The notes beneath the pieces are model-generated. The model saw only the letters and a list, made by a program, of their open reading frames with translations, ran no database searches and had not been told where the DNA came from. Positions 1 to 19,549 of a DNA stretch of 64,000 nt are shown in pieces. Within the stretch, counting starts at the first letter, position 1; each line of letters opens with the position of its first letter. Both the position numbers and the translations under genes were made by a program. The DNA is from Acidimicrobiia bacterium (GTDB taxonomy: Bacteria; Actinomycetota; Acidimicrobiia; Acidimicrobiales; Bin134), in NCBI GenBank assembly GCA_009842675.1, contig VYEX01000064.1:2155-66154 (forward strand), read 5' to 3'.

Positions 1-85
1 ACTCCTTGTCCCGTCTGCGATTGCCCTTGTCTTTCTTGTCTTATCAGCTCTTCAATCACTTGGAGTCGATCGGGTAGGTCTTGGC

Positions 86-361
86 ATGGCACCGAGACCA
101 GGACCTATCGCAGAAGAGAATGGCGCATCTCAAATTCGAGTCGCTGCACAAGAAGAGGTCAACGCGGCCCCATTTGCAAAATGGACGGCAGGAAAGAAGT
201 TGGATGAATCAAATGCTGCAAGACGTAACTTATCTCGAGCAATTGTTTGGCTCATATTCAATGGCGTAGTCGTTCTTGTAGCGATGTCCCTGTTGCAAAC
301 AGACGACTGCCAAGATCACCAAATCGTCGACAGCGTCGTATTGGAATATAGGGAGTGCTGA
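86..361 (+). CDS. hypothetical small membrane protein (one predicted TM helix)
   Basis: 91-aa ATG ORF in low-GC DNA with many A/T-ending codons. Single hydrophobic helix AIVWLIFNGVVVLVAMSLL. No family recognised. Confidence 0.25.
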   Translation: MAPRPGPIAEENGASQIRVAAQEEVNAAPFAKWTAGKKLDESNAARRNLSRAIVWLIFNGVVVLVAMSLLQTDDCQDHQIVDSVVLEYREC

Positions 362-831
362 AACACCCTACAGGGAGGCGAAATCAGTCATTGGCGTCGT
401 AGCTTCAGATGGCCCACGGTCAGCTAGTTGCAAGTGTCTTTGGCGTTACAGGCACCTAAGTCTGAAATCTCGCTAAGGGATGCCCGTGGCATGCGACAGG
501 TGCCTTCGGAAGTGCACGGCATGCTCGAAGTGCTGTAGCCGTGCTGGGCCCTAGCAATACAGAGACTCAGCAACCAGCGGTCTCTAGCGATGGTTTGCCC
601 AGGGCAGAAAATGCACAGCACGATGCTGGGACCAGCGCGTTCGCGTCGAGGGGATGCACCGGTTGACGAACTGCTGGCAGCGGTGCGCTAGCCGATACAG
701 CAGACGTCAACATCTGCCACCGGCGGCACCATATGGCCCCATAGAATTCGAACGGGCTCATTCCACCCAAACTCAAGCACCACATTTCCGCTGGGCAGAG
801 GGAACTCAGGAGTCCAGAGAAAGGACAGGCA

Positions 832-1206
832 ATGTTTGACATAGACCCACCTCGGAGGATCGAAGTTCTCGAAAGCTTCCCTCATCTCTGGTTTTGGGAG
901 ACCGACGACAGCACCCATACTGGTCCAATCGCCCACCATGCCATCCCGGTCCTGAAGCACGCTGCTGAGGATTGGCGAGAGCATGGATTCAAAGGCCGAC
1001 TCGAAAGATGGTTTGGCGACCTATTCGATCCCAGCGTTGCGGAGTCGGGGCTTGACGACGGTTACGCCGACACTCGTCTGATGGCAAGGGTTCAAACGGC
1101 GGGATTCGCATGGGCTGAGGGCAGGCGCAATCACCCCGCTATTGGCGAGTCGTTCGAGCGCTGGGTAGAAGCAGGAGAGACTTCTTCATACCTCCCAGAC
1201 TGCTGA
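832..1206 (+). CDS. hypothetical protein
   Basis: 124-aa ATG ORF preceded by AGGA about 6 nt upstream. Followed by a hairpin plus T-tract. No family recognised. Confidence 0.4.
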   Translation: MFDIDPPRRIEVLESFPHLWFWETDDSTHTGPIAHHAIPVLKHAAEDWREHGFKGRLERWFGDLFDPSVAESGLDDGYADTRLMARVQTAGFAWAEGRRNHPAIGESFERWVEAGETSSYLPDC

Positions 1207-1266
1207 ATGCCGGACGGTCTGTTTTTCATCCAGCAGTGCCCGAGTCCGGTCATTCTCAGACTGTGG

Positions 1267-1294
1267 AAAACGGCGCGCGTGCGTTTGTCTTTTT
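1267..1294 (+). terminator. candidate intrinsic terminator
   Basis: AAACG..CGTTT stem (extendable with one bulge) around a GC-rich loop, followed by TCTTTTT. Lies in the convergent gap between 832..1206(+) and 1318..1788(-). Confidence 0.35.
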
Positions 1295-1317
1295 GAGTGA
1301 AGAACTGTCAGAGCGAG

Positions 1318-1788
1318 TCAAAGTCGTTTGTTGTTTCCGCAGCGTTCTACTCGGGAAGGGACAAGGCGGCCTTGAAATCTCAGTGATCTGCGCAGTACAT
1401 CTACATTGGCGGTTCGGTTGGCTTTTTTGTTGGCAAACAGGGCGGCTAGTTTGGCGGAACTGAGTGGTGAGAACATCCCGTCACCGGTGATCTTGTCGAT
1501 TCCCGCTTGAACTTGCGGAATCGCACCCTTGTCCATGACATTCTTAATCTCAACCACCAGCCACTCGTAGCCGTTACGGACTTTTCGCAAGATGACCAAG
1601 TCTGGCTTCGGATCGCTTGGGCCGAATGCCGAGCACTTATCACACTCAATCATTAGGCGAAGTCCAAGGATCAATAGCCGGCAGCCCTTATGGGTCACTG
1701 CGATCGGCTGGTCGAAGTTTGCAGAGGCAGTCCGTACGAGGCACCCACAACCGGCATGCAGGTGGCGGATTGCTTGAGGATTGGTCAA
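1318..1788 (-). CDS. minimal PD-(D/E)xK nuclease-like protein, possibly with an N-terminal Cys cluster
   Basis: 156-aa ORF. TTG start overlaps the upstream ATPase stop (TTGA at 1785-1788). Motif E48 ... P62-D63 (KPDLVIL) ... E80-I-K82 (VVEIK) matches the PD-(D/E)xK signature. Cys at positions 14, 16, 36, 49 and 52. The start codon is uncertain. Confidence 0.5.
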   Translation of the reverse strand: MTNPQAIRHLHAGCGCLVRTASANFDQPIAVTHKGCRLLILGLRLMIECDKCSAFGPSDPKPDLVILRKVRNGYEWLVVEIKNVMDKGAIPQVQAGIDKITGDGMFSPLSSAKLAALFANKKANRTANVDVLRRSLRFQGRLVPSRVERCGNNKRL

Positions 1789-3281
1789 TCGAGCATGCCA
1801 ATCAAGCGGGCAGATTCTTCGGTGAGGTCTTCTGCCACCTTGACGAACTCATCTTCAGGGATGCCCCATTGGGGATCAACTTCGACACGTTCTACGGTCA
1901 CCATCTTTTTTGATTCGTTCCGCACGAAGCGGTGGACTGCGAGGTCGTTCACCGCCAGAAAATCGTCTTGGGTATAGGCGGGCGTCAGCTCATCTGATGC
2001 TGATGCCGAAGTTTCGTGGCGCAGGACACAGTTTGAGATTTCATTGAGGAGTATTGAGCTGTGTGTCGCGCAAACGACTTGAACCCCGCAATTTGCCAGG
2101 CGAACGAGTACTCGTCCCATCAACCTGATGGCCTCAGGGTGCAAGTGCGACTCTGGTTCATCAACGATCAACAAATCGCCGGGTGCGAGCAGTCTCTCTA
2201 CCCAGATGGCCAGCGGTGCCAGGTCCGCCACCATTGAAGAGGCATGGCGTATGGCAATGCTGTGGCCGTCCTGCTCGTATGCGAGCGTCGGGACGATTTC
2301 GCCATCTGGTTCTGGGCTGATCGTTCCTTCCATGAGCACCTTGAGCAGTGAAATGGCTGGCATGAGAGCATCTTGTTCTGGTGGTCGTTCCGAGCCGAAG
2401 AAGCTAAAGGGACGGAACCGGCGTCGGGAGCCGTGGCCGAGGACATCGGCTAGCGAAGAAATGAAGTCTAGGGCGACTCCATCTAGGGATGGATCTGCAA
2501 ACGAGGGCAGCCCATAACGTTCCTTTTCTAGTTGAATGCGCAGCTTTACGACATCTGTCCAGGCGTTCAACAGCCCGGAGCGACCTGCTGGAAGATAGTG
2601 AGTATTGCCGCCAAGACGTGCGTCTACAAGAAAACTGTGCCAGTAACCCTGCGTCACAATCCACGCAAGGTGACCGTAGAGGTTAGCTAGCTCTTCGCTG
2701 CCTGTGTCTTGGTCGAACAGTGTCGGCAGTGGGAAAAATTCATCGAATTCCGTCCAATCAATCTCCAGCTCACTGAGGATTCTGCCGACCGGTGCCGTTG
2801 TCCCTCCACTGCCGAACAAGCACACATCAGCACCACCTACCTCCGAACTCTTCACTTCAAAACGAAGACCTTCGCCGTTGCCCCAAGAGGTGATGCGCGT
2901 CAATTCATCTACGCCGAAAGTGGCCTTCAACCTAAGCGAAACTTCACGCCCGGCGTCTTCAAGTCCGCTTCGGAGCGCTTGGGCGACGTAGTCGTGTAGC
3001 TGGACTGGCAGCCCTTGTCTTGCAATTCCATCGTTGACAAGGGCATCGTGACGCTCCCGAGCGAAGGCCTCCAAAGCCGTTCCCTCGTCGTTGCTTAGCT
3101 CCTCGACAGGTCGGGGCATAACACTGCGCACTGCCTGTCGGCACGCATACAGGGCCTGCGCGACGTAGGTCTTGCCGGTGTTGTTCCGGCCGATGAATAC
3201 CGTCAAAGGCCGCAACGCAACTTCACCGTGCTCGACCGGCCCTAGGTGGTCCACGACAAGCTGTAGCTCTGTCTTGCTCAC
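1785..3281 (-). CDS. ABC/SMC-like ATPase of the AAA_15/AAA_21 type
   Basis: 498 aa, GTG start. Walker A GRNNTGKT (aa 31-38). A roughly 330-aa insert is followed by Walker B/D-loop LLIVDEPESHLHP (aa 370-382) and H-loop VCATHS. GC is lower than the backbone. Confidence 0.85.
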   Translation of the reverse strand: MSKTELQLVVDHLGPVEHGEVALRPLTVFIGRNNTGKTYVAQALYACRQAVRSVMPRPVEELSNDEGTALEAFARERHDALVNDGIARQGLPVQLHDYVAQALRSGLEDAGREVSLRLKATFGVDELTRITSWGNGEGLRFEVKSSEVGGADVCLFGSGGTTAPVGRILSELEIDWTEFDEFFPLPTLFDQDTGSEELANLYGHLAWIVTQGYWHSFLVDARLGGNTHYLPAGRSGLLNAWTDVVKLRIQLEKERYGLPSFADPSLDGVALDFISSLADVLGHGSRRRFRPFSFFGSERPPEQDALMPAISLLKVLMEGTISPEPDGEIVPTLAYEQDGHSIAIRHASSMVADLAPLAIWVERLLAPGDLLIVDEPESHLHPEAIRLMGRVLVRLANCGVQVVCATHSSILLNEISNCVLRHETSASASDELTPAYTQDDFLAVNDLAVHRFVRNESKKMVTVERVEVDPQWGIPEDEFVKVAEDLTEESARLIGMLD

Positions 3282-3392
3282 TGCTCGCAGGCTATCGTTG
3301 TCTACAACCAGGCACCACGATGGGAGCAGCGGGGGCGTTGGGAAACTGGTGCCGCGTTATTCGCTTTCCAGTACCTGACCCACTTATGCAAC

Positions 3393-3402
3393 TTTTGCAA
3401 AA
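3393..3402. promoter_or_regulatory. 10-bp perfect palindrome TTTTGCAAAA in a divergent intergenic region
   Basis: Lies in the 250-bp gap between the divergently transcribed ATPase (start 3281) and HsdR-like gene (start 3532). Flanked by a TGCAA direct repeat. Confidence 0.25.
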
Positions 3403-3531
3403 TGGGCACACTGCCTGTTTTGCCGGTATTTCGAGATGGCCTTACTACCTCCCTAGCGGAGTGCGCGGGAGCGGGTATCGACGGGGCATAAGGTGTACGG
3501 GATGTTTCGAAGGCAGGAAGGGTGATGGCTG

Positions 3532-6500
3532 ATGCCCGCTGACGAGGCGGCGTTCGAGGAGCACATCGCCTCGTGGTTGGTGGAGCATGGGGGGTATCGG
3601 CGAGCCAAAGTCGGCAATGCCATGGGAGAGCCGCGCGATTTCGATCCCGGCGCGGGGGTGGATACGGCTGATCTGTTCGAGTTCATTGGGGCGACTCAGG
3701 CGGATCACTGGGAGCGGTTGGTGGAATCGGCTTATGGGGGCGATCCGAACCAGGCGCAGTCGGGATTCGTGCAGCGATTGGCGTCGGAGCTTGACAAGCG
3801 GGGGACGGTGGACGTGCTGCGCCGAGGTGTGGTGGACCGGAATGTCAAGATCCACCTGGCGTACTTCAAGCCAGCCCAGGGTCGCACGCCGGAGCTTGCC
3901 CAGCGGTATGAGGCGAACGTGTTGTCGGTTACCCGGCAACTGCCGTTTGAGCCGGACACGTCCCGAACCGTTGACTTGGGACTGTTCGTCAACGGAATAC
4001 CGGTGGCCACCGCGGAGTTGAAGAACCCGCTCACCGGCCAGACCGTCGAGAACGCCATTGCCCAGTACCGAACCGACCGGCCCTACAACAACAGAACGCT
4101 GGGACGGTTGGGCATGGTGCATTTCGCGGTCGATCCCGCATCGGCGGCCATGACCACCCGTCTGGCTGGTACCCGAACCCGGTTTCTGCCGTTCAACCGG
4201 GGGCACAACTTGGGCGCTGGGAACCCACCCAATCCCGACGGGCACCGCACCGCGTACCTGTGGGAGCAGGTGTGGTCGAGAGATGCATGGATGGACATTC
4301 TGGATCGCTACATCCATGTAGAGAAGCCATCCCGTGGCTCAAAGGCCCGCCCAGAGGTGATATTTCCGAGGTTCCACCAATGGGATGCGGTGCGGCGTCT
4401 TGAGGCCGACGCCAAAGAGCGCGGCGCGGGTCGCAGTTACCTGGTTCAGCACTCGGCAGGGTCGGGCAAATCAAATTCGATCGCCTGGTTGGCGCACCGG
4501 CTATCAAAGCTGCACACCGACGACGACGCCCAAGTGTTCAACAAGGTGGTGGTGATCACTGACCGTGTCGTGCTCGACCGCCAGCTTCAGGACACGATCA
4601 GTCAGTTCGAACACGCCCTTGGTGTGGTGGAGCGAATCGACGAGAACTCGGCTCAGCTGGCAGCGGCTCTTGCTGGTGAACAGGCCCGAATCATCGTCAC
4701 TACGTTGCAGAAGTTCCCGTTCATCATCGACAAGATCGAGTCGCTGCCCGAGCGCAACTACGCCGTGATCGTAGATGAGGCCCACTCGTCGCAGACTGGC
4801 GAGGCGGCCAGGGAGTTGCGTCGGGTGCTGGGCTCGGCCGAGCCCGAGACCGACACGGATATGGAAGCGGGAGAGGTCGAGACGCTGCTCGCCGAGGCGG
4901 TCGCTGCCCGCGGCCGTCAGCCCAACCTGTCGTTCTTCGCCTTCACTGCTACCCCCAAGGGCCGCACCTTGGAACTGTTCGGTGAGGCTGGTGACGGCAG
5001 CAGGCACGAGCCCTTCCACCTGTACCCGATGCGCCAGGCCATAGAGGAGGGCTTCATCGAGGATGTGTTGGCTGGGTATCTGACCTACAACCAGTACTTC
5101 CATCTGGAGAAGGCGATCCTCGACGACCCTGAGTACGACACCGACAAGGCCCGCACTGCGCTTGCCAGATTCGTCACCCTACATCCGGACAATCTGGCGC
5201 AGAAGGCGGAGATCATCGTCGAGCACTTCCGCACCAAGATTGCTCGACAGATGGGTGGCGAGGCCAAGGCGATGGTGGTGTGCTCGTCGCGGCCCCATGC
5301 GGTGCGGATGTGGGAGGCGCTGCGAGGCTACGCCAACAACCTGGGATACGACCTCGGAGTGCTGGTGGCATTTTCGGGCGAGGTCGAAGGGATGACCGAA
5401 TCTAAGGCCAACGGTTTCCCAGAGTCCCAGACCGCGGAGCAGTTCGACACCGACGAGTGGCAGATCATGGTGGTGGCAGAGAAGTTCCAGACAGGTTTCG
5501 ACCAGCCGAAGCTGGTCGCCATGTACGTGGACAAGACCCTCACAGGCCTGGCTGCGGTGCAGACCCTTTCAAGGCTCAATCGCATCCATCCCGATAAGTC
5601 GGGCACTTTCGTGATTGACTTCGTGAACGACGCCCATCAGATCGGCGAGGAGTTCGCGGTGTACCACGGCAAGACCGTCGCACCGCCGACCGATCCCAAC
5701 CTGCTGTTCGACACTCGTCGTGAGCTCGATGGCTTCGGCGTCCTAGATGCCGGAGAGATGCAGCGGGCGGCGACGCTGCTCTTGGGGGAGGGCAACCACG
5801 CTCAAATTGACGCCGCCCTTCAGCCTGCCGCGGACCGGTTCAGGGCGTTGGACGATGACGACCAGGCTGCGTTCCGGGACTCGCTGGCTCGATTTGTGAG
5901 GGTGTACGGGTTCTTGTCGCTGGTCGTGCCATTCCGCAATCCTGAATTGGAGCGCGACTACCTGTTCTGCCGAGCTCTGGCCGCTCTCATTCGGGATCGA
6001 GACCCTGGTGAGAGCATCAACTTGGGCACGGAGGTGGAGCTCACCCATCTTCGGCACGAGATCGCGTTCGAGGGCTCGATCTCACTGCCTGACGGCGACG
6101 GTGAGGTGACCACCATCTACTCCGGTACCGGACCGCTCACCGACCCAGAGGAAGAACGGCTGTCCCAGATCATCGCCCGCCTCAACGAGCGCTTTGGTAC
6201 CGACTGGACCGAAGAGGATCGCTTGGTGTTTGAGGCCGCAGCCGGGGATCTCGTCTCGGACGCCGAGATCCAAAACCAGGCGGTGAATAACGACGAGGTC
6301 ACCTTCCGCACCCACGTTTTCCCGGCGCGCTACGAGAAAGCCCTGTTGTCTCGGATTGACCGCAATAGCGACCTCATCTACGCCTACCTCGACAGCAACG
6401 AGCTTCAGGCCGAGGTCATGGACATCTTTGCCGTCAATGTTCAGAGGCGCGCCGCCGTCGCGAGGCAGCGGACCTGCCCCATAGGCGATCTGCTTGGACC

Positions 6501-6987
6501 AGATCGAGAGTCGTTGTTCTTGGAGTACAAGTCCACCCTCCGCTGGGACATCCGAGAGCAGCGAAGGGGAGGCATTCCTGAGGACGCCGTAATCAAGACC
6601 ATTGCTGGCTTTGCCAACTCCGAGTACGGAGGGACCCTCCTGGTTGGTGTGGCCGACGACGGTTCGATCCACGGATTGGAAGACGACTACGCCACCTTCT
6701 CTCGACGCGGCGAGCGAGGTGACCAAGACCTGTGGGGCCAGCACCTTCAGAATCTGATTCGCAGCCGCCTAGGTGATGCGGTCCTCCCCCTCGTCTCCTG
6801 GGAGTTCCACACTGTCAACGGCAACCATCTAGCCCGAATCAGCATCGACCCATCAGGTTTCCCAGTCCTTGAGCGCAATGATGTAGACGAGATTTTCTGG
6901 CTCAGAACTCCAACTTCTACAATTCCGATTCTTGACTCCAATGAAAGAGATCAAATTCTGACACGTCGATGGGGAAGCCTTACGTGA
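3532..6987 (+). CDS. type I restriction R-subunit-like (HsdR-like) nuclease/helicase fused to a C-terminal AlbA_2 (Schlafen-like) domain
   Basis: 1151 aa, with AGGAAGG upstream of the ATG. Contains the N-terminal nuclease motif VD148LGLF...AE162LK164, helicase motif I HSAGSGKS (aa 307-314) and DEAH (aa 415-418). Also has a HsdR-type C-terminal helical region. The tail from about aa 990 (LFLEYKSTLRW...IAGFANSEYGGTLLVGVADDGSIHGL) is typical of AlbA_2. Confidence 0.85.
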   Translation: MPADEAAFEEHIASWLVEHGGYRRAKVGNAMGEPRDFDPGAGVDTADLFEFIGATQADHWERLVESAYGGDPNQAQSGFVQRLASELDKRGTVDVLRRGVVDRNVKIHLAYFKPAQGRTPELAQRYEANVLSVTRQLPFEPDTSRTVDLGLFVNGIPVATAELKNPLTGQTVENAIAQYRTDRPYNNRTLGRLGMVHFAVDPASAAMTTRLAGTRTRFLPFNRGHNLGAGNPPNPDGHRTAYLWEQVWSRDAWMDILDRYIHVEKPSRGSKARPEVIFPRFHQWDAVRRLEADAKERGAGRSYLVQHSAGSGKSNSIAWLAHRLSKLHTDDDAQVFNKVVVITDRVVLDRQLQDTISQFEHALGVVERIDENSAQLAAALAGEQARIIVTTLQKFPFIIDKIESLPERNYAVIVDEAHSSQTGEAARELRRVLGSAEPETDTDMEAGEVETLLAEAVAARGRQPNLSFFAFTATPKGRTLELFGEAGDGSRHEPFHLYPMRQAIEEGFIEDVLAGYLTYNQYFHLEKAILDDPEYDTDKARTALARFVTLHPDNLAQKAEIIVEHFRTKIARQMGGEAKAMVVCSSRPHAVRMWEALRGYANNLGYDLGVLVAFSGEVEGMTESKANGFPESQTAEQFDTDEWQIMVVAEKFQTGFDQPKLVAMYVDKTLTGLAAVQTLSRLNRIHPDKSGTFVIDFVNDAHQIGEEFAVYHGKTVAPPTDPNLLFDTRRELDGFGVLDAGEMQRAATLLLGEGNHAQIDAALQPAADRFRALDDDDQAAFRDSLARFVRVYGFLSLVVPFRNPELERDYLFCRALAALIRDRDPGESINLGTEVELTHLRHEIAFEGSISLPDGDGEVTTIYSGTGPLTDPEEERLSQIIARLNERFGTDWTEEDRLVFEAAAGDLVSDAEIQNQAVNNDEVTFRTHVFPARYEKALLSRIDRNSDLIYAYLDSNELQAEVMDIFAVNVQRRAAVARQRTCPIGDLLGPDRESLFLEYKSTLRWDIREQRRGGIPEDAVIKTIAGFANSEYGGTLLVGVADDGSIHGLEDDYATFSRRGERGDQDLWGQHLQNLIRSRLGDAVLPLVSWEFHTVNGNHLARISIDPSGFPVLERNDVDEIFWLRTPTSTIPILDSNERDQILTRRWGSLT

Positions 6988-7147
6988 TTTGGGGTTGAGA
7001 AAGCAATTGTAACTGTTATTGTTTTCGCAAAATTGGATGCGGCTTTTCACTCAGACGATAGTTTCGGTTGAAAGCTGTACAATCTGATGACAATACCGCA
7101 ATAATGTTGGAGATTGTTTTCCTACATTTGGCAAGGAGAAAAGGCAT

Positions 7148-7402
7148 ATGGGAGTAATATACACGCAGAATGGAGATCCTCTGGAGGTTAGGGGAAATAA
7201 AATATATAGAAAGGATGGCCGGCAAGTAGCCACACTTAAGGGCAACAAGGCCTTCGGAAGTGACGGCAAGTATATGGGCACAATTGTTGGCGATCGGCTT
7301 ATATTCAGGTCTTCAGATAAGTCCTATCGGGGATCAAGATTCAAACCAGCCATTGGCTCTAGGTTTTCGCGCAGAAAATCAACTCGCTCGCGTCTTCGAT
7401 AG
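7148..7402 (+). CDS. small repeat protein (four beta-hairpin-like repeats of about 15 aa, basic Ser/Arg tail), possibly 4-fold beta-flower-like
   Basis: 84-aa ORF in an AT-rich islet with AAGGAG upstream. Repeats IYTQNGDPLEVRGNK / IYRKDGRQVATLKGNK / AFGSDGKYMGTIVGDR / LIFRSSDKSYRGSRF. Confidence 0.35.
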   Translation: MGVIYTQNGDPLEVRGNKIYRKDGRQVATLKGNKAFGSDGKYMGTIVGDRLIFRSSDKSYRGSRFKPAIGSRFSRRKSTRSRLR

Positions 7403-7464
7403 AGGCTTGCACCAATCACAAATTAGGTTGGCGTGCTTGACTAGGAAACAGGTGCGTCAAGAAT

Positions 7465-8016
7465 TCAAATAGTTTGAGTGCCGTCGACGCCGAGGGCGAT
7501 GGCGAGGACGATGGCGATGCCGCCGAGGAGGCGGGCGGTGACCGAGAGCAGGGGGGTGGGGACGGCTCGGAACCACAGCAGGGCGGCGGTGACCAATGCG
7601 GCCAGCACCACGCCGGCCATGGTGCGGAGGGTGCCGTCGTGGGCGGCGGTGGCCAGCACCACGGCGACGAGCTGGGGGGTGAACAGCACCGTCAGGGCGA
7701 TAAGGGCCACTTGGGTCCCGGCCCGGGGCTCGTCGTGGACGGGGTGGTCGGGCCACACCATCCACCACAGTCCGGCAACGGCGAAGGGCACCGCGGTGGC
7801 TAGCCGCCACGTGCCTGTCGTCACCGACAGGCCGTCGAGGATGGGATCAGCCAGCGCGGCGATCACCCACAGCGCGCCCACCGCGGCAACCACGGCCAGC
7901 GCTACCCGGGGCCGCCACTGATCACGGTTGGAGGGCCGCCAGGCCACGCTCAGCGCGCCCGCGGCCGGGTTGGCCGCGGCCAGCACCATCAACATCACCG
8001 GTCCGAGTCCGCTCAT
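7465..8016 (-). CDS. integral membrane protein (MarC/UPF0056-like, tentative)
   Basis: 183 aa, about 6 hydrophobic helices, high GC3. Last gene of the minus-strand operon 11474..7465. Confidence 0.55.
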   Translation of the reverse strand: MSGLGPVMLMVLAAANPAAGALSVAWRPSNRDQWRPRVALAVVAAVGALWVIAALADPILDGLSVTTGTWRLATAVPFAVAGLWWMVWPDHPVHDEPRAGTQVALIALTVLFTPQLVAVVLATAAHDGTLRTMAGVVLAALVTAALLWFRAVPTPLLSVTARLLGGIAIVLAIALGVDGTQTI

Positions 8017-8097
8017 GCCAACTGCCCTTTCGTGTCAATGGCCTCTTCAATCGAACCGGTTGACGACAATCCGAGTCCGCTCATGGTCTTCCTGCTT

Positions 8098-9225
8098 TCA
8101 TGGCTTGTTTCCTCCGAGGTTGAAACTGACATCGGCCATCAACAGGCCGGAGATGGCGTGCTGCTGGTCGTCCACTCGTGTTTGATCGTCGTAGTACCAA
8201 GCGCCGTCGTCGGCCTGGGCTTCGGCCAAGCGGGCCGCGCCGCACTCCAGCCGATCCCGCAACGGAGCGTCGGCGAGGCGGGGCTCGTTGAGCCAGAGCC
8301 ACTCCAGGGCGCCCAGCCCCTCCAGAATGGTCCCGTAGCCGCCGCCGCGTGGCATGGGCAGATGGGAGATCTTGGCCACGCCCTCCCGCTGGGCGTCCCA
8401 GCGGATCATCTGCCCGAACCGCCCGGCCAAGCGCTCGGCATAGGCCAGGTGGTGGTCTTCCAAGCCCCACTCGGCCGTCTCGCCCAAGGTGTAGGCCGCC
8501 CACTGATCGGGCCATGGCGGAGGCCAAAGCTCTTCCAACTCGTCCCGCTCGGTGGACAGATAGTCCAAGATGGCCCACACCGGGGCATCCCACCCCTCGC
8601 CGGGAAATATCTCGTGCAAGAGCGCCAAACCCCAAGAGGCCTCGCCGGTGGCGAACCGGGACCGCTCCCCGGGCACCGGAGCGCCGGTCTTGGGGTCCCA
8701 GAAATTGAGCATCCCGCCGTCGGGCAGCTGCTGGCCCACCAGGAACCGGCCCAGCGCCCGCATCTCGCCGTCATAGCGGTCATCGCCGGTGAGGATGCGC
8801 CGATGGGCCAGCGACACCAGCGTCAGCGCGGCCGTGCCGGTTTTCACCGGACCTCGGGGCGACAGCGCCGGTCCCATGCCCCCGTTGCTGGTGTCCACGG
8901 CCCGCTCCAACAGGTAGTTCATGCCCCGATCGGCGGCTTCCACTACCTCCTGGTTTTGGCCCTCTTGGACAATGGCCAGCTGGTAGAGCGACATGGTGCC
9001 CCCGGCGTGGCGGACCAGGTTGTACCCCGGCTTCGCTGACTCAATTCGCCGGTCGTACTCGTACAGGTACCGCCCGCTGGGCTCCTGGGTGCGGACGATC
9101 CAGTCGGCCCCGGCGTCGATGGCCGACTGGCCGTCGCCGGGGGAGTAGGCCGGGCACACCTCGGGCGCGGCCAGCGTCACCCGCAACAACGCGGCCATCA
9201 CCACCCACACCACCGCCCAGGCCAT
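8098..9225 (-). CDS. membrane-anchored or secreted protein, possibly an alpha/alpha-toroid (terpenoid-cyclase / prenyltransferase-like repeat) fold
   Basis: The ORF is open to 9444. The ATG at 9225 (MAWAVVWVVMAALL, signal/anchor) avoids overlap with the upstream HTTM gene. Trp/Gly-rich repeats (QQLPDGG, ADDGAWYY). The family call is tentative. Confidence 0.45.
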   Translation of the reverse strand: MAWAVVWVVMAALLRVTLAAPEVCPAYSPGDGQSAIDAGADWIVRTQEPSGRYLYEYDRRIESAKPGYNLVRHAGGTMSLYQLAIVQEGQNQEVVEAADRGMNYLLERAVDTSNGGMGPALSPRGPVKTGTAALTLVSLAHRRILTGDDRYDGEMRALGRFLVGQQLPDGGMLNFWDPKTGAPVPGERSRFATGEASWGLALLHEIFPGEGWDAPVWAILDYLSTERDELEELWPPPWPDQWAAYTLGETAEWGLEDHHLAYAERLAGRFGQMIRWDAQREGVAKISHLPMPRGGGYGTILEGLGALEWLWLNEPRLADAPLRDRLECGAARLAEAQADDGAWYYDDQTRVDDQQHAISGLLMADVSFNLGGNKP

Positions 9226-9278
9226 GAGCCGGCGGGTGGCTCGCCCGGTCCAGAGTCGCCGCAGCGACGACAAAGCGC

Positions 9279-10358
9279 TCACCGGTACCGCCAGAACCGA
9301 GAAAACAGGAAGGTGGCCGGCAGCCGGGTCCGCACGAACTGGCGGGCTTCTCGTCCCTCCAGCACCGTGCCGTCGCGATCCACCATGCTCCACGATGCCC
9401 CTGGCGCCACGGTGATGTCGAACCGGGCCATCCAGTCCAGCCACCGCACCCAGCGACTAGGGGTGACCAGGGTGCGGTCGCGGGTGGAGGGAACTACCCA
9501 CAAGGCCAGGGCGCCGATGGCGATCACGCTGAACACCTGAACGTGGGCGCTCACCTCGATGCCCACGTGGAAGGCCACCGCCACCCACACCGCGGCCAGC
9601 CGGGTTCGGCGGAACCACAGACCGAAGGCGATGAACAGCTCGGTGGCCACCGCGGCTGGTGAAAGCACCCAGTGGAACGCCCGAGCGGTCAGCACGTCCA
9701 AGATGGGGTCGGCCAGCGTGTCGCCTAGGGCGTCGCGCACTTCATGCTGATATCGCACGGTGCGGTCGTGCAGCACCCGACCGCCTACCCAGTCGGGGTC
9801 GATCAGCTTGGAGAACCCCGAGGCGAAGTAGACGACGGCGGCTTCAAACCGCAGCAGCCACAGGGGCCACACCAATCCCCGGTCGTCAGACGGCGGGTGG
9901 CGAAGGGCGTCCAGCGACAGCGCCCGGCCGTTGTCGCACAGGGCCACCCCGGCCAACAGGATGACCAGAAACGCCCGGTTGTGGTGGAAGTGGGTTTGCG
10001 ACAAGAAGAGGTTGTAGGCCACCACCGCGAAGGCGGCCCATGTGGCGGTGCGCGACCACCAGCCCACGGTCATCAGCACTGCGGCGGCCACCCCGACCCA
10101 TAGCAGCGCTACATACAGCCCGGCTGGCGCGTTGGGATACCACGACCACCACGGCTGCTGGAAGCGGTCGTGGTAGGTGATGCCGTCCAGCGCGTCGGCC
10201 AGAAACGGACGCAAGTGCCAGATCACCGACGGACCCAGCACAATGCGCAGCACGGCCACACCCCGCACGCTGGCGGGCTGGTCGAATGCCTCGCTCAGCC
10301 ACCGCTGGTACCTCATCCGCCAGCCGGTGGCCGACGCAGCAGAAGCCGTGGCCGTCAT
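9279..10358 (-). CDS. HTTM domain (vitamin K-dependent gamma-carboxylase-like) integral membrane protein
   Basis: 359 aa. N-terminal VAVLRIVLGPSVIWHL-type HTTM start followed by multiple TM helices. The ATGA overlap with the upstream gene suggests translational coupling. Confidence 0.7.
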   Translation of the reverse strand: MTATASAASATGWRMRYQRWLSEAFDQPASVRGVAVLRIVLGPSVIWHLRPFLADALDGITYHDRFQQPWWSWYPNAPAGLYVALLWVGVAAAVLMTVGWWSRTATWAAFAVVAYNLFLSQTHFHHNRAFLVILLAGVALCDNGRALSLDALRHPPSDDRGLVWPLWLLRFEAAVVYFASGFSKLIDPDWVGGRVLHDRTVRYQHEVRDALGDTLADPILDVLTARAFHWVLSPAAVATELFIAFGLWFRRTRLAAVWVAVAFHVGIEVSAHVQVFSVIAIGALALWVVPSTRDRTLVTPSRWVRWLDWMARFDITVAPGASWSMVDRDGTVLEGREARQFVRTRLPATFLFSRFWRYR

Positions 10359-10849
10359 GGTCCGCCCAGCTCCCGCTCATGGCTGCGGACCACCGTGACA
10401 TAGGGGCCGCGAGCATTGCGGTAGTAAGTGACGGTGGCCTCCAAGTAGAGGGTTTCGGTATCACCGGGGGTGTTGTCGGCCACCCAGTTCAGGGCGTTGT
10501 CCAAGAAGTCCACCACTGCATCCACGCCAGAAAAGGCGTGGCGCTGATGCCATGGAGACCGCAGAGGTCCCCAGTCGATCAGCTCGTTCCAGTGGTAGCC
10601 CTCCCAGCGGCCGTTGGGTACCGGTACTCGCTCGCCGTCGTCCAGAACCCGAACCAGTTCCACTGCATAGGTGCTGGACTCGTTGAACGGCTGGAAGGCG
10701 AAGTAGTTGTGCGGATCCCGGTAGCCATTGGCCACCAGCGCGAGTTGAGCGACCACCACGGCGGCGGCGAACCATCGGGCCCCTCGCCGGCGCCAGAGGG
10801 GGCGGGGCTTGGCCGCCGCCTGTGAGACAGCGTCAGCCGCCGTCGCCAT
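10355..10849 (-). CDS. hypothetical membrane-anchored protein (HTTM-associated)
   Basis: 164 aa. One N-terminal TM helix (WFAAAVVVAQLALVA). Start and stop overlap both neighbours. Confidence 0.45.
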   Translation of the reverse strand: MATAADAVSQAAAKPRPLWRRRGARWFAAAVVVAQLALVANGYRDPHNYFAFQPFNESSTYAVELVRVLDDGERVPVPNGRWEGYHWNELIDWGPLRSPWHQRHAFSGVDAVVDFLDNALNWVADNTPGDTETLYLEATVTYYRNARGPYVTVVRSHERELGGP

Positions 10850-11474
10850 ACCTCTGCTTGTAGGCCTCCAGATCGGGGGGCAGGCGGTCGCGTTTGAGCT
10901 CGGCGAAGTTGTCGTAGGCGGTCAGCCAGCGGGTGTGGCGCCACAGCTCCACCGCCTCTTCGGTCGACTCCGGCGGGTTGCTGATCACCGGGCCGAACAG
11001 CGCTGGGCCTCGGCCGCCTTCTAAACGGATAGTGGGCACCCCGAAGCTGCGGGTCTCGTCGCACAAGATGGTGTGCTCGGACTTCAGCGTCTCCCAGGTG
11101 CTGTCGTCGGCCAGGGCATCATCCACCAGGCTGGCGTCGAATCCGGCGTCGACTGCGGCGGCCTTAATTGTGTCAATCTCATTCACCGACTCCACCAGGT
11201 CGAACACCCGGTGGCCGATGGCCTGGTAGTAGGCGCCGATGCCTTCGTTGCCGCCCACCTCGCGGGCCTTGACCGCGGTGCGCAGCGAGGCCACGCCCAC
11301 TCCCCGGTCAGGGTCAAACTCCTCCATCGGCTTGTCCCAGTTGACGATGGCCAAGGAGAACAGGCCCCAGGTCACGCTCACCTCACCGGCGTCTTCGATC
11401 TGACGAACCCAACGGGCTGTCTGCCAACACCACGGTCAAAGCGGGTCGAAATAAAAGGTGATGGGCTCGCTCAT
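10833..11474 (-). CDS. DsbA/FrnE-like thioredoxin-fold oxidoreductase with in-frame TGA at the first CxxC position (candidate selenoprotein, otherwise a pseudogene)
   Basis: The ATG at 11474 is preceded by GGGAGAG. It reads MSEPITFYFDPL-TGA(11438-11436)-PWCWQTARWVRQIEDAGEVSVTWGLF and continues in frame into the track ORF 10833..11381. The TGA sits where DsbA-family proteins carry the nucleophilic Cys. Confidence 0.55.
11402..11421 (-). promoter_or_regulatory. candidate bacterial SECIS-like hairpin
   Basis: mRNA 5'-GAC AGCCC GUU GGGUU C GUC-3' forms an 8-bp stem (one G-U pair, one bulged C). The G/U-containing apical loop starts 14 nt after the UGA. Confidence 0.3.
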
Positions 11475-11512
11475 CAGGCTCTCTCCCTGTTCCAGTTCAT
11501 CGGACTCTCAAT

Positions 11513-12535
11513 TTAACCCAGGATGACCTCGGCGATGGTCCGCAGCTCGTCTGCCGATCGGGCGCCCACGTTGATGCCGGTGATCGGGCTCTCCTCCCAG
11601 GCCGCCAGCCGGTCGCGGATCCGCTCTGGCGATCCCACCAGGGAGATCTCGTCGGCGAATTGGTCGGGCACCGCGGCAATGGCCTCTTCCCGCCGGCCCT
11701 CAAAGAAGAGGTCTTGGATGTGGTAGGCCTCCTCCTCGAACCCCATCCGGGCCATGAGCTTGGTGTGGTAGTTCTGGCCCTTGGCCCCCATGCCCCCGAT
11801 GTAGAAGCCCAGCGAGGCCTTGGTGGGCAACAGCGCTTCGGCCAGCTCTTCGTCGGAGTTGCCGGTGACCTTGATCGTGGTGTGGACGGTGATCTCGAAG
11901 TCGTCGGAGCGCCCGGCGATCGATTCGGCGTACACCTCGGGGCGGAACGGGGAGTAGTACAGCGGCAGCCAGCCGTCGGCGATTTCCACCGTCTGGGCGA
12001 TGTTCTTGGGACCCTCGGCGCCGATGAAGATGGGGATGTCGGCCCGGGGGGGATGGGTCATGATCTTGAGCGGCTTGCCCAGGCCGGTGTCGCCCTCTCC
12101 CTTGTAGGGGTGGTTGTAGTAGTCGCCCTCGAAGGTCAGATAGCCGTCTCGGGCGAACACCCGCCGCAGGATCTCCACGTACTCCCGGGTGCGGGCCAGA
12201 GGACGGTTGCCGGGTTGGCCGTACCATCCCTCCACCACTTGGGGGCCGGACACGCCCAAGCCCAGGATGAGCCGCTGGTTGGACAGGTGGTCGGCGGTGA
12301 CTGCATGCATGGCCGTTGCCGTGGGGGTGCGGGCGGCCAGCTGCACGATGCCGGTGCCCAAGCGGATGCGCTCGGTGTGGGCGGCCAGCCAGACCAGGGG
12401 CGAAAAGGCGTCGGAGCCCCACGACTCCGCCGTCCACACCGAGTCGTAGCCCATCCGCTCGGCCTCCTGGGTTAGGGGCACGAAGCCCTCCGGCATCCCA
12501 CGGCTCCAATATCCCCAGACCAGTCCGAGTTTCAT
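11513..12535 (-). CDS. LLM-class (luciferase-like) F420-dependent oxidoreductase
   Basis: 340 aa. [10 protein letters not shown]...[16 protein letters not shown]...[16 protein letters not shown] is typical of the family. Confidence 0.8.
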
Positions 12536-12642
12536 GGCGGCGACCCTATCCCGATCACCTGCTGAGACCGTTGTCGGGATTGGGCGCGAGTGCCCCTATC
12601 CGTTTGCCGCTGGCCGTTCCCCGACCGGTAACATGGTTCCCT

Positions 12643-12879
12643 ATGTCCAAGGTCTGCCAGGTGACCGGTCGTCGCCCGTCGTTCGGCAATAACGTGTCCC
12701 ACTCGCACCGCAAAACGCGGCGCCGGTGGAACCCGAACGTCCACAAACACCGCTTCTGGGTACCGTCGGAGAAGCGATGGATCACCCTCAATGTGTCGGC
12801 CAAAGGTCTCAAAACCATCAACAAGCACGGCATCGACAAAGTGGTGGCCCAGATGCGCCAGCGCGGGGAGAAGTTCTGA
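12643..12879 (+). CDS. rpmB: 50S ribosomal protein L28
   Basis: [65 protein letters not shown] is near-colinear with E. coli L28. The internal ATG of track ORF 12316..12879 was used as the start. Confidence 0.9.
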
Positions 12880-12882
12880 GCC

Positions 12883-13044
12883 ATGGCTAGCGACAAACGA
12901 CCGATCATCAAGCTGAAGTCCACGGCGGGAACCGGCTACACCTACGTGACCACCAAGAACCGCATCAACGACCGGGAGCGGATCGAGCTCAAGAAGTACG
13001 ACCCTGTGGCCCGCAAGCACGTCGTGTTCAAGGAGGAGCGGTAG
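12883..13044 (+). CDS. rpmG: 50S ribosomal protein L33
   Basis: 53-aa ORF, below the track cutoff, read directly from the sequence. [53 protein letters not shown]. Starts 3 nt after rpmB. Confidence 0.9.
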
Positions 13045-13067
13045 CCACCGCCGACGACGAGCCCAGG

Positions 13068-13856
13068 GTGCTCCTGACGGCCGCACAGCTGGCCGAACGG
13101 AGAGAGACTTTGACGGCTGCACTGCTGGCCGAAGACCCTGCCCCGCCGCTGTGGCATCTGGTTGACTCCGGCCTCGCCGACGAGATCGTTCCCGAACTGC
13201 CCGCGCTCCGTTTGGAGCAGGACCCCATCCACCGCCACAAAGACGTGCTGGCCCACACCATTGCGGTGGTGGCCAAGACCCGCGCTGACCTGGTTTTGCG
13301 GTTGGCCACGCTGTTCCACGACGTGGGCAAGCCCCGCACCCGCTCCTATGAGCGGGGAACGGTCACCTTCTACCACCACGAGGCGGTGGGGGCCCGCATG
13401 ACCCGCAAGCGCCTCACCGAGCTGGGCTATCCCGAGGAGGTGGTGGACGACGTGAGCGAACTGGTGCGGCTGTCGGGTCGGTTCAAGGGCTACGCCGACG
13501 GCTGGAGCGATGCCGCGGTGCGCCGCTATGCCCGAGAGGCTGGTCCCCTGTTGGGCTACCTCAACGAATTGGTGAGAGCCGACTGCACCACCCGGAACCT
13601 CCAGAAGGCCAACGATCTCCAGCACCATGTCGACGATCTGGAAGCCCGGATTGCCCGACTAGCCGATGAGGAGCGCCGGGCGGCTGAGCGGCCGTTGATC
13701 GACGGCAACGAGGTCATGGAGCGCTATGGAATCGGCCCTGGACCCGAGGTGGGCGCGGCGCTGAAGTTCCTCTTGGAGCTGAAGCGGTCCGAACCCGACC
13801 TGGACCGGCCCGCAACCGAGGCCCGACTCGACGCCTGGTGGGCTGAGAACCGCTAA
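13068..13856 (+). CDS. HD-domain protein resembling the C-terminal half of actinobacterial CCA-adding enzyme
   Basis: 262 aa, GTG start. HRHKDVLAHT...LFHDVGKP HD motif. No nucleotidyltransferase head domain is present upstream. Confidence 0.7.
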   Translation: MLLTAAQLAERRETLTAALLAEDPAPPLWHLVDSGLADEIVPELPALRLEQDPIHRHKDVLAHTIAVVAKTRADLVLRLATLFHDVGKPRTRSYERGTVTFYHHEAVGARMTRKRLTELGYPEEVVDDVSELVRLSGRFKGYADGWSDAAVRRYAREAGPLLGYLNELVRADCTTRNLQKANDLQHHVDDLEARIARLADEERRAAERPLIDGNEVMERYGIGPGPEVGAALKFLLELKRSEPDLDRPATEARLDAWWAENR

Positions 13857-13924
13857 ATCCCCTGGTCAAGCGGTGACATAAAAGTGGGCGGTGGCCGGGC
13901 TAGCCTCCGATCGGGAGTTGTCAA

Positions 13925-15652
13925 TTGGCCGGTCGAATTGTTGTTCTCATAGCAGTTTTGTTGCTGGCCTCGTCCTGTTCTGACCGCTCTGCCGGCCAAC
14001 CGGATTCTCAGCCGACGAGCGCTTCAGAGACTCCCATTCCCTCCGAATCAAGCCCTGCGCCCACGGCAAATCCCACTGCGGTCGCCACTACGCCGGAGCC
14101 GCCTGCGCCCACTGAGGCCCCCACGACGACGGCGGTCCCCGAGTCCACTGCGACACCAGAGCCCACCGCGGCACCCACGCCTACTGCGACGCCCGAGCCG
14201 ACCCCGGCACCCGAACCCACTGAGGCACCCACGCCGACCCCGACGCCCGAGGCGACCCCGACCCCCGAACCCATAGGGGACGATCGCGAGTGCTCGCCAC
14301 AAGTCCCCGACGACTTCCGTCTGTCCACCACCGATCTCGCCCCGGCCAGTGTCCAGATAACGCAGGCGGCCTATAGCTGTGCTCATGAGGTCGGCATTGC
14401 ACTGGCCCGGGACCATGCTGCGATTGCCACACTGGCGTCTCGTGGGGTCAACGGCCCGCTGCTGCTGCTTGAATCGTGGTTCGAACCCGCATTCATGGCC
14501 GAGCTTGGGCGTCTCGCCCCCCAGGTAGTGGTGGTGGCCGGGTTCGAAGAACAGGTCCTCGATACCTCCTTGGCCGACTTCGAATTCGAGCTGATGTCTG
14601 TCGATGAGGAGGCCACGGTGCCTCCCTCCGAAGGGTCCAGCGACCGCATCTGGCTAGTCGGCGATGATGCGCCGGTGGCCACGCTGACTGCACTGGGCGC
14701 CCCAATCGGCGCCCGGGCAGTGATTGTCGGCGGCGATCTGCGAGCCCTTCCTCCCGAGACGATGGAGATGATTCTCGGCGCCTCCCAGGTTGAAGTGCTC
14801 TCCGACCTCGGGGAGGACGCAGACTGGCAGTTGGCGGTGGTCCTCCGGGGCGATGAACTGCCCGGTGGCGGGTGGCTCATGTTCGATGCCGGTTTCAACC
14901 GCCGTCTAGTGGCGATGTACGGACACCCGTCGACGCCAGGCCTCGGGGTGCTGGGCGAGCAGGACGCCGAAGAGGGAGTCGAGCGCCTCCAGACCATCGC
15001 CGAGGGCTACGACGCCGACGGCGCCGTGATACTGCCCACCTTCGAGATCATTGCCACCGTTGCCTCTGCCGGCCCCGGAGAGGACGGGGACTATTCGGCT
15101 GAGACCACCCGGGCTGAGATACGGCCTTGGGTCGAGACAGCGGCGGCCAACGATATGTACGTGGTGCTGGACCTACAGCCGGGGCGAACCGACTACCTCA
15201 CCCAGGCCAAGATCTACGAAGAGTTCCTGCGCCTGCCCAATGTCGGCCTTGCGCTGGATCCCGAGTGGAGGCTCAAGCCAAACGAGGTTCATTTGCGCCA
15301 GATCGGCACGGTCGACGCCGAAGAGATCAACCAGGTTGTCGAGTGGCTAGCCGGAATTGTCCGTGAGGAAGCCCTTCCCCAGAAGCTGCTGATCCTTCAC
15401 CAGTTCCGCTTGCAGATGATCACTAACCGTCATCTGGTTGAGACTCCTCCAGAGCTGGCGGTGTTGGTCCACATGGACGGTCAGGGTCCGGTTCGAGACA
15501 AGATCAACACCTGGAACTTGTTGACCAGACAGCCCGATGCCGGGCAGTTCTATTGGGGTTGGAAGAACTTCTTCGACGAGGACTTCACCATCGCAACCCC
15601 GGATCAAGTACTGGAACTAACCCCCACACCTTTGTTCGTTTCGTTCCAGTAG
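13925..15652 (+). CDS. secreted lipoprotein with Pro/Thr-rich linker; function unknown
   Basis: 575 aa, TTG start. Lipobox LLASSC. A roughly 90-aa PT/PE linker is followed by a globular C-terminal region. Confidence 0.6.
   Translation: MAGRIVVLIAVLLLASSCSDRSAGQPDSQPTSASETPIPSESSPAPTANPTAVATTPEPPAPTEAPTTTAVPESTATPEPTAAPTPTATPEPTPAPEPTEAPTPTPTPEATPTPEPIGDDRECSPQVPDDFRLSTTDLAPASVQITQAAYSCAHEVGIALARDHAAIATLASRGVNGPLLLLESWFEPAFMAELGRLAPQVVVVAGFEEQVLDTSLADFEFELMSVDEEATVPPSEGSSDRIWLVGDDAPVATLTALGAPIGARAVIVGGDLRALPPETMEMILGASQVEVLSDLGEDADWQLAVVLRGDELPGGGWLMFDAGFNRRLVAMYGHPSTPGLGVLGEQDAEEGVERLQTIAEGYDADGAVILPTFEIIATVASAGPGEDGDYSAETTRAEIRPWVETAAANDMYVVLDLQPGRTDYLTQAKIYEEFLRLPNVGLALDPEWRLKPNEVHLRQIGTVDAEEINQVVEWLAGIVREEALPQKLLILHQFRLQMITNRHLVETPPELAVLVHMDGQGPVRDKINTWNLLTRQPDAGQFYWGWKNFFDEDFTIATPDQVLELTPTPLFVSFQ
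14010..14282 (+). repeat. in-frame low-complexity Pro/Thr/Glu/Ala-coding repeats
   Basis: Encodes ...PTANPTAVATTPEPPAPTEAPTTTAVPESTATPEPTAAPTPTATPEPTPAPEPTEAPTPTPTPEATPTPEP. Confidence 0.8.
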
Positions 15653-15679
15653 GGCCTGACCCAGGCTGACAACTCGCCG

Positions 15680-16444: not shown

Positions 16445-16510
16445 GCTGCCAACGTGGATGGGATAGTCGTTCACGTCGCCCGAAGATAGCCGTTGCGCTC
16501 TAGTGTCGGC

Positions 16511-18926: not shown

Positions 18927-19021
18927 ATCAGCGCAACTGGGTTCTTCAGCGTCCTAATGGGAGGGTCTCTCTTGGGAGTTTTTGCTTGGCTTCGGCTCAC
19001 TCTAGTGACAGTCTGGAGCCG

Positions 19022-19453
19022 ATGACCGCCGTTGACCGCCCGGCCGATCAGGCCCCCAAGCCCCGCCCTTATCCCGAGCGGGACTCGGCGCCGTGGTGGG
19101 AGCGCATCAACCAGCACCGCTTCGAGTTGCAGCGTTGCGACGGGTGCGGGGCCTGGCGGTGGCCCCCCCGAGTCATGTGCGGGCGATGTGCCTCCTTCGA
19201 ATTCACCTGGACCCCGCTGTCGGGCCGGGCCACGGTGGAGAGCTGGGTGGTGAACCACCATGCCTTCCTGCCGGGATTCGCCTCCCCCTACACCGTGGTG
19301 CTGGGCCGACTAGAGGAACAAGACGATCTGTGCCTGCCCGCCACCTGGCAAGGCGGCGATGAGCCTGTCGCCGGCCAGCCCATCGAAGTGGCCTTTGAAG
19401 ACCACGTCGACGATGAAGGCCCCTTCACCCTCCTCGCCTGGCGCCCAGCTTGA
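19022..19453 (+). CDS. Zn-ribbon OB-fold protein (DUF35 family)
   Basis: WWERINQHRFELQRCDGCGAWRWPPRVMCGRCASFEFTW. The internal ATG of track ORF 18986..19453 was used as the start. Confidence 0.75.
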   Translation: MTAVDRPADQAPKPRPYPERDSAPWWERINQHRFELQRCDGCGAWRWPPRVMCGRCASFEFTWTPLSGRATVESWVVNHHAFLPGFASPYTVVLGRLEEQDDLCLPATWQGGDEPVAGQPIEVAFEDHVDDEGPFTLLAWRPA

Positions 19454-19549
19454 GCTTCAGAGGCGCAAAGGCTTGCCGTTCGGGGTGACCTAAGCGGGGG
19501 CGGTTGTACTAGATTTCTCGCGGACCCGGAAGACGACTAGGGAGATGCC

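Follow-up and report, generated by a model that had tools for sequence, protein, structure and literature searches.

An ATPase–nuclease pair of Acidimicrobiia with a Cys/His-rich nuclease, probably a divergent anti-phage module of the PD-T4-4/PDC-M47/WonAB class

Results

A stretch of 64,000 nucleotides (nt) from an Acidimicrobiia bacterium (assembly GCA_009842675.1, contig VYEX01000064.1, positions 2,155 to 66,154 of the forward strand), hereafter the window, carries near its left end two tightly packed genes: gene A, which encodes an ATPase, and gene B, which encodes a small partner protein with the signature of a PD-(D/E)xK nuclease (Table 1). An earlier note, made from the sequence alone, had singled out this pair as a candidate undescribed two-gene defence module. 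Both open reading frames (ORFs), their coordinates on the minus strand and the TTGA junction between them were read directly from the sequence and are as that note had given them; the TTG start of gene B shares 4 nt with the TGA stop of gene A (junction gaTTGAcc).

Table 1 Features of the ATPase–nuclease locus, in positions of the window (aa, amino acids; bp, base pairs; residues are numbered within the product of gene A or gene B)
Feature	Position	Strand	Basis
Gene A, ATPase ORF, 498 aa	1785..3281	minus	GTG start; ORF list
Gene B, small partner ORF, 156 aa	1318..1788	minus	TTG start; ORF list
TTGA start/stop overlap, translational coupling	1785..1788	minus	Junction ...ctc gaT TGA cc..., read from sequence
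Gene A: Walker A, G31-RNNTGK37-T38	3168..3191	minus	G31, N33, N34, T35, G36, K37 and T38 invariant in 34 homologues
Gene A: Y229-LPAGRSG motif, probable Q-loop region	2577..2597	minus	Y229, L230, P231, G233, R234 and G236 invariant in 34 homologues
Gene A: Walker B/D-loop, L370-LIVDEPESHLHP382	2136..2174	minus	L371, P376, E377, H379, H381 and P382 invariant; D374 and E375 at least 90%
Gene A: H-loop, C404-ATHS408	2058..2072	minus	C404, T406, H407 and S408 invariant in 34 homologues
Gene A: C-terminal extension past the ABC core, aa 425-498	1788..2009	minus	P470, W472-G-I474, E476 and E478 invariant
Gene B: N-terminal His/Cys module, H11, C14, C16, C36, C49-D50-x-C52	1633..1758	minus	Conservation in 85 representatives
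Gene B: catalytic core, P62-D63 ... E80-I-K82 ... Q92	1513..1605	minus	Conservation and AlphaFold2 (AF2) model
Divergent intergenic region, 250 bp, separating gene A from the HsdR-like gene and presumed to hold the promoter	3282..3531		Sequence reading

Gene A has the organization of a split ABC/SMC-type ATPase that had been claimed for it, with Walker A, Walker B/D-loop and H-loop found as stated, both by direct reading and in an alignment of 34 sequences (33-91% identity) to which all statements on ATPase conservation refer. Across this alignment K37, R234, S348, E377 and H407 are invariant, while D374 and E375 are kept in at least 90% of the sequences. Pfam places the protein with AAA_21 (E 1.7e-18) and AAA_15 (E 5.8e-15). 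The AF2 model (predicted local distance difference test, pLDDT, 79; predicted template modelling score, pTM, 0.82) has as its nearest solved folds PtuA of Septu and retron-Eco7, Rad50 and the heads of SMC proteins. A profile of the ATPase searched against PDB sequences gave only weak matches to OLD and PtuA, so no close solved structure exists for it there.

In gene B, P62-D63 and E80-I-K82 are present as described, together with the five cysteines that precede them (C14, C16, C36, C49 and C52); a sixth cysteine follows at C150. An exhaustive profile search with the partner over 1.84 billion cluster representatives (E<=0.001) recovered 101 representatives, and the residue counts for gene B refer to those 85 that reach 135 aa or more (50% identity level). 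P62 and D63 are kept in all 85, E80 and Q92 in 83 each and K82 in 77, which places the conservation of the PD...ExK signature far beyond chance. The cysteines and histidine of the N-terminal module are nearly as widespread (C49 in 80, C52 in 78, C36 in 76, C16 and H11 in 70 each, C14 in 63), as is C150 (74). E48, which had been counted as a residue of the nuclease signature, is variable (mostly D, with S or A too); the invariant acidic residue is D50, kept in 85 of 85 within a C49-D-x-C52 motif. We consider the His/Cys module and C150 to form a predicted metal-binding site, probably and most simply a structural one.

A word-indexed search with the partner returned 11 homologues; besides the window's own entry, called at 111 aa, seven of the remaining ten are 156 aa long and span the full query. 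Automatic gene calls (P0002; L081/L082) begin gene B at M46, which yields the 111-aa product and loses the region of H11, C14, C16 and C36. Because the N-terminal 45 aa are conserved despite these shorter calls, we take the TTG start to be correct.

Of the partner's AF2 models, the best (pLDDT 80.4, pTM 0.82) has strands at residues 43-48, 64-70, 73-82 and 113-120 and a helix at 89-102, with D63 at the start of the second strand, the ExK motif at the end of the third and Q92 within the helix. Compared with the PDB by Foldseek, this model found FokI first, followed by Bse634I, AddB, Can2, EcoO109I and SwaI, all of which are PD-(D/E)xK nucleases. Searches of Pfam, NCBIfam, PADLOC and PHROGs with the 156-aa protein gave no family match; the sole Pfam line, Ets (E 0.021), was rejected as spurious. 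The partner profile found nothing meaningful among PDB sequences, and a Foldseek comparison with the viral structures of BFVD was uninformative. Neither protein of the pair gave any signal of a TOPRIM or HNH domain in Pfam, NCBIfam or PADLOC.

The pairing is widely conserved. A first search returned 296 homologues of the ATPase, and a scan that took a single genome for each GTDB species gave 80 ATPase loci, about 78 of them evaluable. Many of the hosts are metagenome-assembled genomes (MAGs) of sponge symbionts (Acidimicrobiia, Dehalococcoidia and Poribacteria), and they also include a Thermoproteota archaeon, Clostridia, Fusobacterium and Planktothrix. Across the evaluable loci an ORF of 140-230 aa starts a few bases from the ATPase stop, with the same 4-nt overlap (offset -3) in 18 related loci and a gap of 0 to 14 nt in most others. 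An iterative hidden Markov model (HMM) search seeded with the window's family united the downstream ORFs of 69 of the roughly 78 loci in one partner family, and the expectation that a homologous small ORF should lie directly beside ATPase homologues is thereby borne out. Among 55 aligned partner ORFs from many phyla, whose mean identity is 14%, D63 is invariant and E80, K82 and Q92 are kept in at least 90%. The identity matrices of ATPase and partner are correlated (r=0.76, Mantel p=0.001, 61 loci): the pair is passed on, and diverges, as one unit. The feature is real and clearly under selection. The relatives found on viral contigs were all distant, and none was of the Cys-rich branch.

It should be noted that one large subfamily of partners, of the Poribacteria type (for example L064:9374-9967), carries E-T-Q in place of the catalytic ExK, with Gln replacing Lys, while D and E are invariant. 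Judging by these residues, the chemistry or the activity of this branch may be altered.

Both genes can be linked to known defence families. The best of the 125 PADLOC matches of the ATPase is PD-T4-4_A (PDLC04033; E 2.7e-39, 133.6 bits), followed by PDC-M47A (E 5.9e-28), NsnB, AriA, Old and GajA. Aligned by hhalign, the ATPase family profile matches PD-T4-4_A of an E. coli plasmid with a probability of 99.6% (E 2.3e-24) over 439 columns that include the C-terminal extension. Within the E. coli PD-T4-4_A protein, 'hRSsLLnhW' aligns with the Y229-LPAGRSG motif and 'D-KYGINQEIF' with 'DPQWGIPEDEF' of the extension (hhalign); in the PD-T4-4_A model the extension aligns with the C-terminus (profile 292-452 of 460).

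For the nuclease the link was found stepwise by hhalign. The window's partner branch matches an intermediate group with a probability of 98.0% (E 3e-13, 125 columns including a C-terminal RCG motif), and this intermediate group matches the group that contains bona fide PD-T4-4_B with 96.6% (E 7e-10, 82 columns); compared directly, the window's branch and the PD-T4-4_B group align with 89.1% (E 2.3e-6, 56 columns). These steps supersede an earlier comparison of the near branch with a far group dominated by Poribacteria, which had given a probability of 16%. The near partner alignment (A5) set against E. coli PD-T4-4_B alone gave E 0.0022 and a probability of 13%. Of the 55 members of the partner family, 25 match PDC-M47B (best 2e-71) and 18 match PD-T4-4_B. 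By these profile comparisons we judge both genes to be homologous to bona fide PD-T4-4 genes, with a clear link for the ATPase and a remote one for the nuclease.

The window's pair agrees with PD-T4-4 in several respects. Both have an ATPase followed by a tightly coupled small nuclease, adjacent and on the same strand; the ATPases are homologous over their full length, C-terminal extension included; the nucleases have a D..(E/D)xK..Q core in common and are joined by the profile-profile link; and relatives are borne on mobile elements. They differ in that the window ATPase is about 21% identical, is longer (498 vs ~460 aa) with longer inserts and matches the A model only in part, and in that the window nuclease, which the B model does not match, is shorter (156 vs ~200 aa) and carries the His/Cys module, whose cysteines are missing from aligned bona fide PD-T4-4_B sequences, as well as the RCG motif. 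Whereas PD-T4-4 occurs in enterobacteria or vibrios, the window's branch is found in high-GC Acidimicrobiia and sponge-symbiont lineages (GC, guanine plus cytosine). The architecture of PDC-M47 is likewise the same, and both the ATPase match to PDC-M47A and the matches of partner-family members to PDC-M47B fall in with it; however, the window's own partner misses the PDC-M47B model, and PDC-M47 is a computational candidate only. A literature search for a paper that names PDC-M47 found none.

Bona fide PD-T4-4 pairs used for reference, from an E. coli Col plasmid and a P2-like Vibrio phage, score 364-614 bits for A and 63-147 bits for B. On the 4.8-kb Col-type plasmid pSCU-105-5 of E. coli (L084) the pair is nearly the sole cargo, and in the P2-like Vibrio phage 1.202.O (L085) it lies between cI and the integrase. 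A 4.3-kb K. pneumoniae plasmid, pKPN6 (L155), shows the same layout of an ATPase plus a hypothetical protein. On all three elements the genes are annotated merely as 'AAA family ATPase' or 'AAA domain protein' and 'hypothetical protein'.

The gene that diverges from gene A, an ORF of 1151 aa at 3532..6987 on the plus strand, encodes an HsdR-like protein (HSDR_N, SWI2_SNF2/ResIII, T1R_D3) fused to a C-terminal SLFN_AlbA_2 domain (aa 993-1129), and the pair does adjoin a defence-like gene, as had been claimed. No HsdM or HsdS was detected by tblastn in positions 1-20000 of the window, and the HsdR-Schlafen protein looks like an orphan R-subunit fusion. A scan for the sigma-70 consensus over 1100-3700, which covers the intergenic region, returned zero sites. 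In a 4.0-Mb genome (L083) a 91%-identical copy of the pair lies beside HsdM/HsdS, an N6_N4 methyltransferase, a BrxC/D-like ATPase and an ISL3 transposase. Another locus (L003, 1-2034) has an HsdR 82% identical to that of the window beside a pair that shares 46% (ATPase) and 35% (nuclease) identity with the window's, which suggests that the pair is swapped as a cassette at a hotspot beside a conserved hsdR. A general functional link to type I restriction was considered and rejected: tblastn searches with HsdR, HsdM and HsdS over all fetched loci pointed to L003, L083 and a weak HsdM-like match in L074 only.

The GC content of the window is 54.5% at 1-2000 and 58.2% at 2001-4000 and reaches about 62-69% from 8 kb on, in agreement with the earlier remark that the pair lies in DNA of lower GC; this DNA is apparently of foreign origin. 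The low-GC island extends past the start of the window. A sharp trough of about 45% GC at 6750-7500, after the HsdR-like gene and followed by DNA of 62-74% GC, may mark an island boundary. An ORF of 84 aa within this trough (7148..7402, plus strand) is internally repetitive and matches the Pfam family Bflower (4-fold beta flower; E 0.001) below threshold. At the left edge, two more ORFs (255 and 305 aa) extend past the window (L081:3687-5361). Neither these two nor a 124-aa ORF at 832..1206 on the plus strand has any match in Pfam, PADLOC or PHROGs, and none of the three is conserved next to the L083 copy with 91% identity. The 124-aa ORF, which converges on the window's pair, was rejected as a third component, not being conserved there.

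Discussion

Based on these results, the pair is very probably an anti-phage module, and we put at roughly 0.78 the probability that it is one of the PD-T4-4/PDC-M47/WonAB class, in which an ABC ATPase works with a small nuclease of the restriction-endonuclease fold. Since the pair belongs to this class, the earlier proposal of a new two-gene system does not stand: PD-T4-4, PDC-M47 and WonAB already combine an ABC ATPase with a small PD-(D/E)xK nuclease, and PD-T4-4 and WonAB also contradict the statement that ATPase-led systems pair with HNH, TOPRIM or helicase partners only. Assignment to a named system, which the earlier note had said would undo its proposal, thus largely holds at the level of the class, while the branch itself fails the PADLOC nuclease (B) models. 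The database searches divide in the same way, with the ATPase matching PD-T4-4_A and AAA_21 and the partner matching no model. What is novel is a divergent subtype, small and mostly seen in sponge-symbiont MAGs, with a Cys/His-rich minimal nuclease that the tested PADLOC B models miss.

Several observations weigh against this assignment. The ATPase reaches its 133.6 bits in two partial stretches, vs more than 360 bits over the full length for true PD-T4-4_A, and by these scores we place it on a distant branch and not among close members of PD-T4-4_A. The 156-aa protein has no PADLOC match even at E<=1, PD-T4-4_B and PDC-M47B included, and its nearest relatives of ~150-160 aa match PDC-M47B or PD-T4-4_B marginally (E 0.0003-0.05) and in the catalytic core only. 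Just one of the five AF2 models of the partner is confident (mean pLDDT 80, 62, 62, 48 and 44). The nuclease fold that had been predicted for it is favoured by best matches that are restriction endonucleases (FokI, Bse634I), but the scores are weak: FokI, the best, has an E value of 0.042, a probability of 0.90 and a template modelling (TM) score of 0.42, and no match was found at E<=0.001. The flanks of related loci mostly do not resemble the defence islands that had been expected across genomes; a Pfam survey of 131 flanking ORFs, made without a control set, found mainly housekeeping families, with a LepA/metallo-beta-lactamase locus recurring in several cases and a few genes for AAA_21, SLFN_AlbA_2, methyltransferase or integrase proteins (SLFN_AlbA_2 flanks three related loci). 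Lastly, in the Cys-rich branch itself, complex, trigger, target and metal site are all putative.

In experimental studies of this class, PD-T4-4 was found in E. coli by functional selection for phage resistance (Vassallo 2022, PMC9519451), and it has been classed as a PD-(D/E)xK nuclease-NTPase system (bioRxiv 2025.07.10.664194). WonAB, from the WASA-1 prophage of V. cholerae, consists of an ABC ATPase and a 16-kDa variant of the PD-(D/E)xK fold, and its published description ties it to PD-T4-4 and to the operon 'OLD-ABC ATPase + novel REase' from Krishnan et al. 2020, which by that account is built alike (PMC12137116). Its defence is described there as abortive, translation stopping while DNA stays intact, and as lost in ATPase-motif mutants and in WonB K71A; WonB is predicted to sit on WonA's dimerized C-terminal extensions, and its turnover is Lon-dependent (PMC12137116). 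Overproduced WonB is reported to be toxic, yet only with active WonA, and a simple antitoxin model by sequestration to have been excluded (PMC12137116).

The window's pair resembles WonAB in joining an ABC ATPase that has all catalytic motifs and a C-terminal extension to a PD-(D/E)xK variant of ~16-17 kDa, and the spacing of the motifs is similar (WonA K34/E300/H333 vs window K37/E375/H407; WonB K71 vs window K82). By motif order and spacing, R234 of the window ATPase is probably equivalent to R182 of WonA, and the WonA model in the same source makes the C-terminal extension of the window ATPase a putative docking platform for the nuclease (PMC12137116). Differences are that WonA is shorter between motifs, that the passages of PMC12137116 considered here mention no Cys/His module for WonB and that WonAB homologues are reported there mainly from Gram-negative bacteria. 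PARIS (AriAB), the PtuAB proteins of Septu and retrons, Gabija GajA and OLD likewise couple a nuclease effector to an ABC-ATPase sensor from one and the same broad clade, to which the window ATPase's matches to AriA, Old, GajA and PtuA point, and several of them act on tRNA; their effectors, however, are TOPRIM or HNH proteins, unlike the small stand-alone PD-(D/E)xK protein of the window.

By analogy, WonAB offers the best available model for the mechanism of the pair, namely abortive infection via translation arrest, and we have drawn more loosely on PARIS, Septu/retron-Eco7 and OLD. The ATPase would dimerize head-to-head around two ATP molecules (K37, R234, E375, H407), and its C-terminal extension (aa ~425-498) would keep the small nuclease inactive or unstable. 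A phage-derived cue, sensed via the inserts of the ATPase, might then set off an ATP-dependent change by which the nuclease (D63, E80 and K82, with D50 and Q92) is licensed to cut nucleic acid and halt the infection, probably in an abortive manner. In this branch the His/Cys module would probably hold a structural metal (Zn, possibly Fe-S) that stabilizes this unusually small nuclease. Because WonAB stops translation and EcPD-T4-4, which forms higher-order complexes, cut none of 11 DNA substrates in vitro (bioRxiv 2025.07.10.664194), we hold RNA of the translation apparatus (tRNA or rRNA) to be a more likely target than bulk DNA.

A pair of the same module class might instead act by direct restriction of DNA, the ATPase recognizing foreign DNA or translocating on it and the PD-(D/E)xK subunit cutting phage DNA while the host is spared, perhaps in co-operation with the HsdR-Schlafen protein. 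We consider this unlikely. PD-(D/E)xK is classically a DNA endonuclease fold, the best structural matches of the partner are type II restriction enzymes, and several PD-(D/E)xK nuclease-NTPase systems degrade DNA in vitro (bioRxiv 2025.07.10.664194); the uncut substrates of EcPD-T4-4 and, for WonAB, genomic DNA that stays intact under a WonB toxicity that blocks translation (PMC12137116) speak against such an activity here. Type I restriction components do lie beside the pair in the window and in L083, and the 82%-identical HsdR of L003 accompanies a divergent pair, but with such genes near only three of the searched loci the association is not general.

It is very unlikely, in our view, that the pair is an addiction cassette akin to a toxin-antitoxin (TA) system, with a nuclease toxin and an ATPase controller that serve the maintenance of a mobile element more than defence against phages. 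The low-GC, apparently foreign DNA around the cassette would suit such a role, as would relatives that form the main cargo of tiny Col-type plasmids or reside in a P2-like phage, the Pfam label of AAA_21, which names a putative AbiEii/type IV TA toxin, and the toxicity of overproduced WonB (PMC12137116). That toxicity, however, needs active WonA, and the sequestration model was excluded for WonAB (PMC12137116); PD-T4-4 came from a selection for phage resistance (PMC9519451), and many related loci are chromosomal, amid housekeeping genes and with no mobility genes nearby. A housekeeping role in DNA repair or recombination, as a RecF/RecN/SbcCD-like ABC ATPase with a nuclease, is highly improbable even with the resemblance of the ATPase model to Rad50 and SMC heads, given the patchy spread over phyla and domains, the atypical local GC, top HMM matches that are all defence ATPases (PD-T4-4_A, PDC-M47A, NsnB, AriA, Old, GajA) and no curated housekeeping family match near its cut-off.

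Within the PD-T4-4/PDC-M47/WonAB class, we can further speculate that the Cys/His-rich branch is a functionally distinct subtype, in which a Zn or Fe-S centre of six Cys and one His does more than stabilize the fold, for example by redox or metal gating of the nuclease or by replacing part of the licensing by the ATPase. Horizontal transfer would have carried such a subtype between sponge-symbiont Acidimicrobiia, Dehalococcoidia and an archaeon, and the adjacent orphan HsdR-Schlafen fusion might act together with it; we regard this extended scenario as quite unlikely.

The pair opens no new category of immunity. It belongs to a PD-T4-4/WonAB-type branch of about 100 clusters (50% identity) that escapes the tested PADLOC nuclease models, that has most of its members in uncultured lineages, sponge symbionts among them, and one in an archaeon, and whose small nuclease gene is often mis-started by gene callers. 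A model for the Cys-rich nuclease would improve censuses of defence systems in high-GC and symbiont genomes, and, in a poorly understood class, so small a nuclease, with its putative metal site, might lend itself well to biochemistry and structural work.

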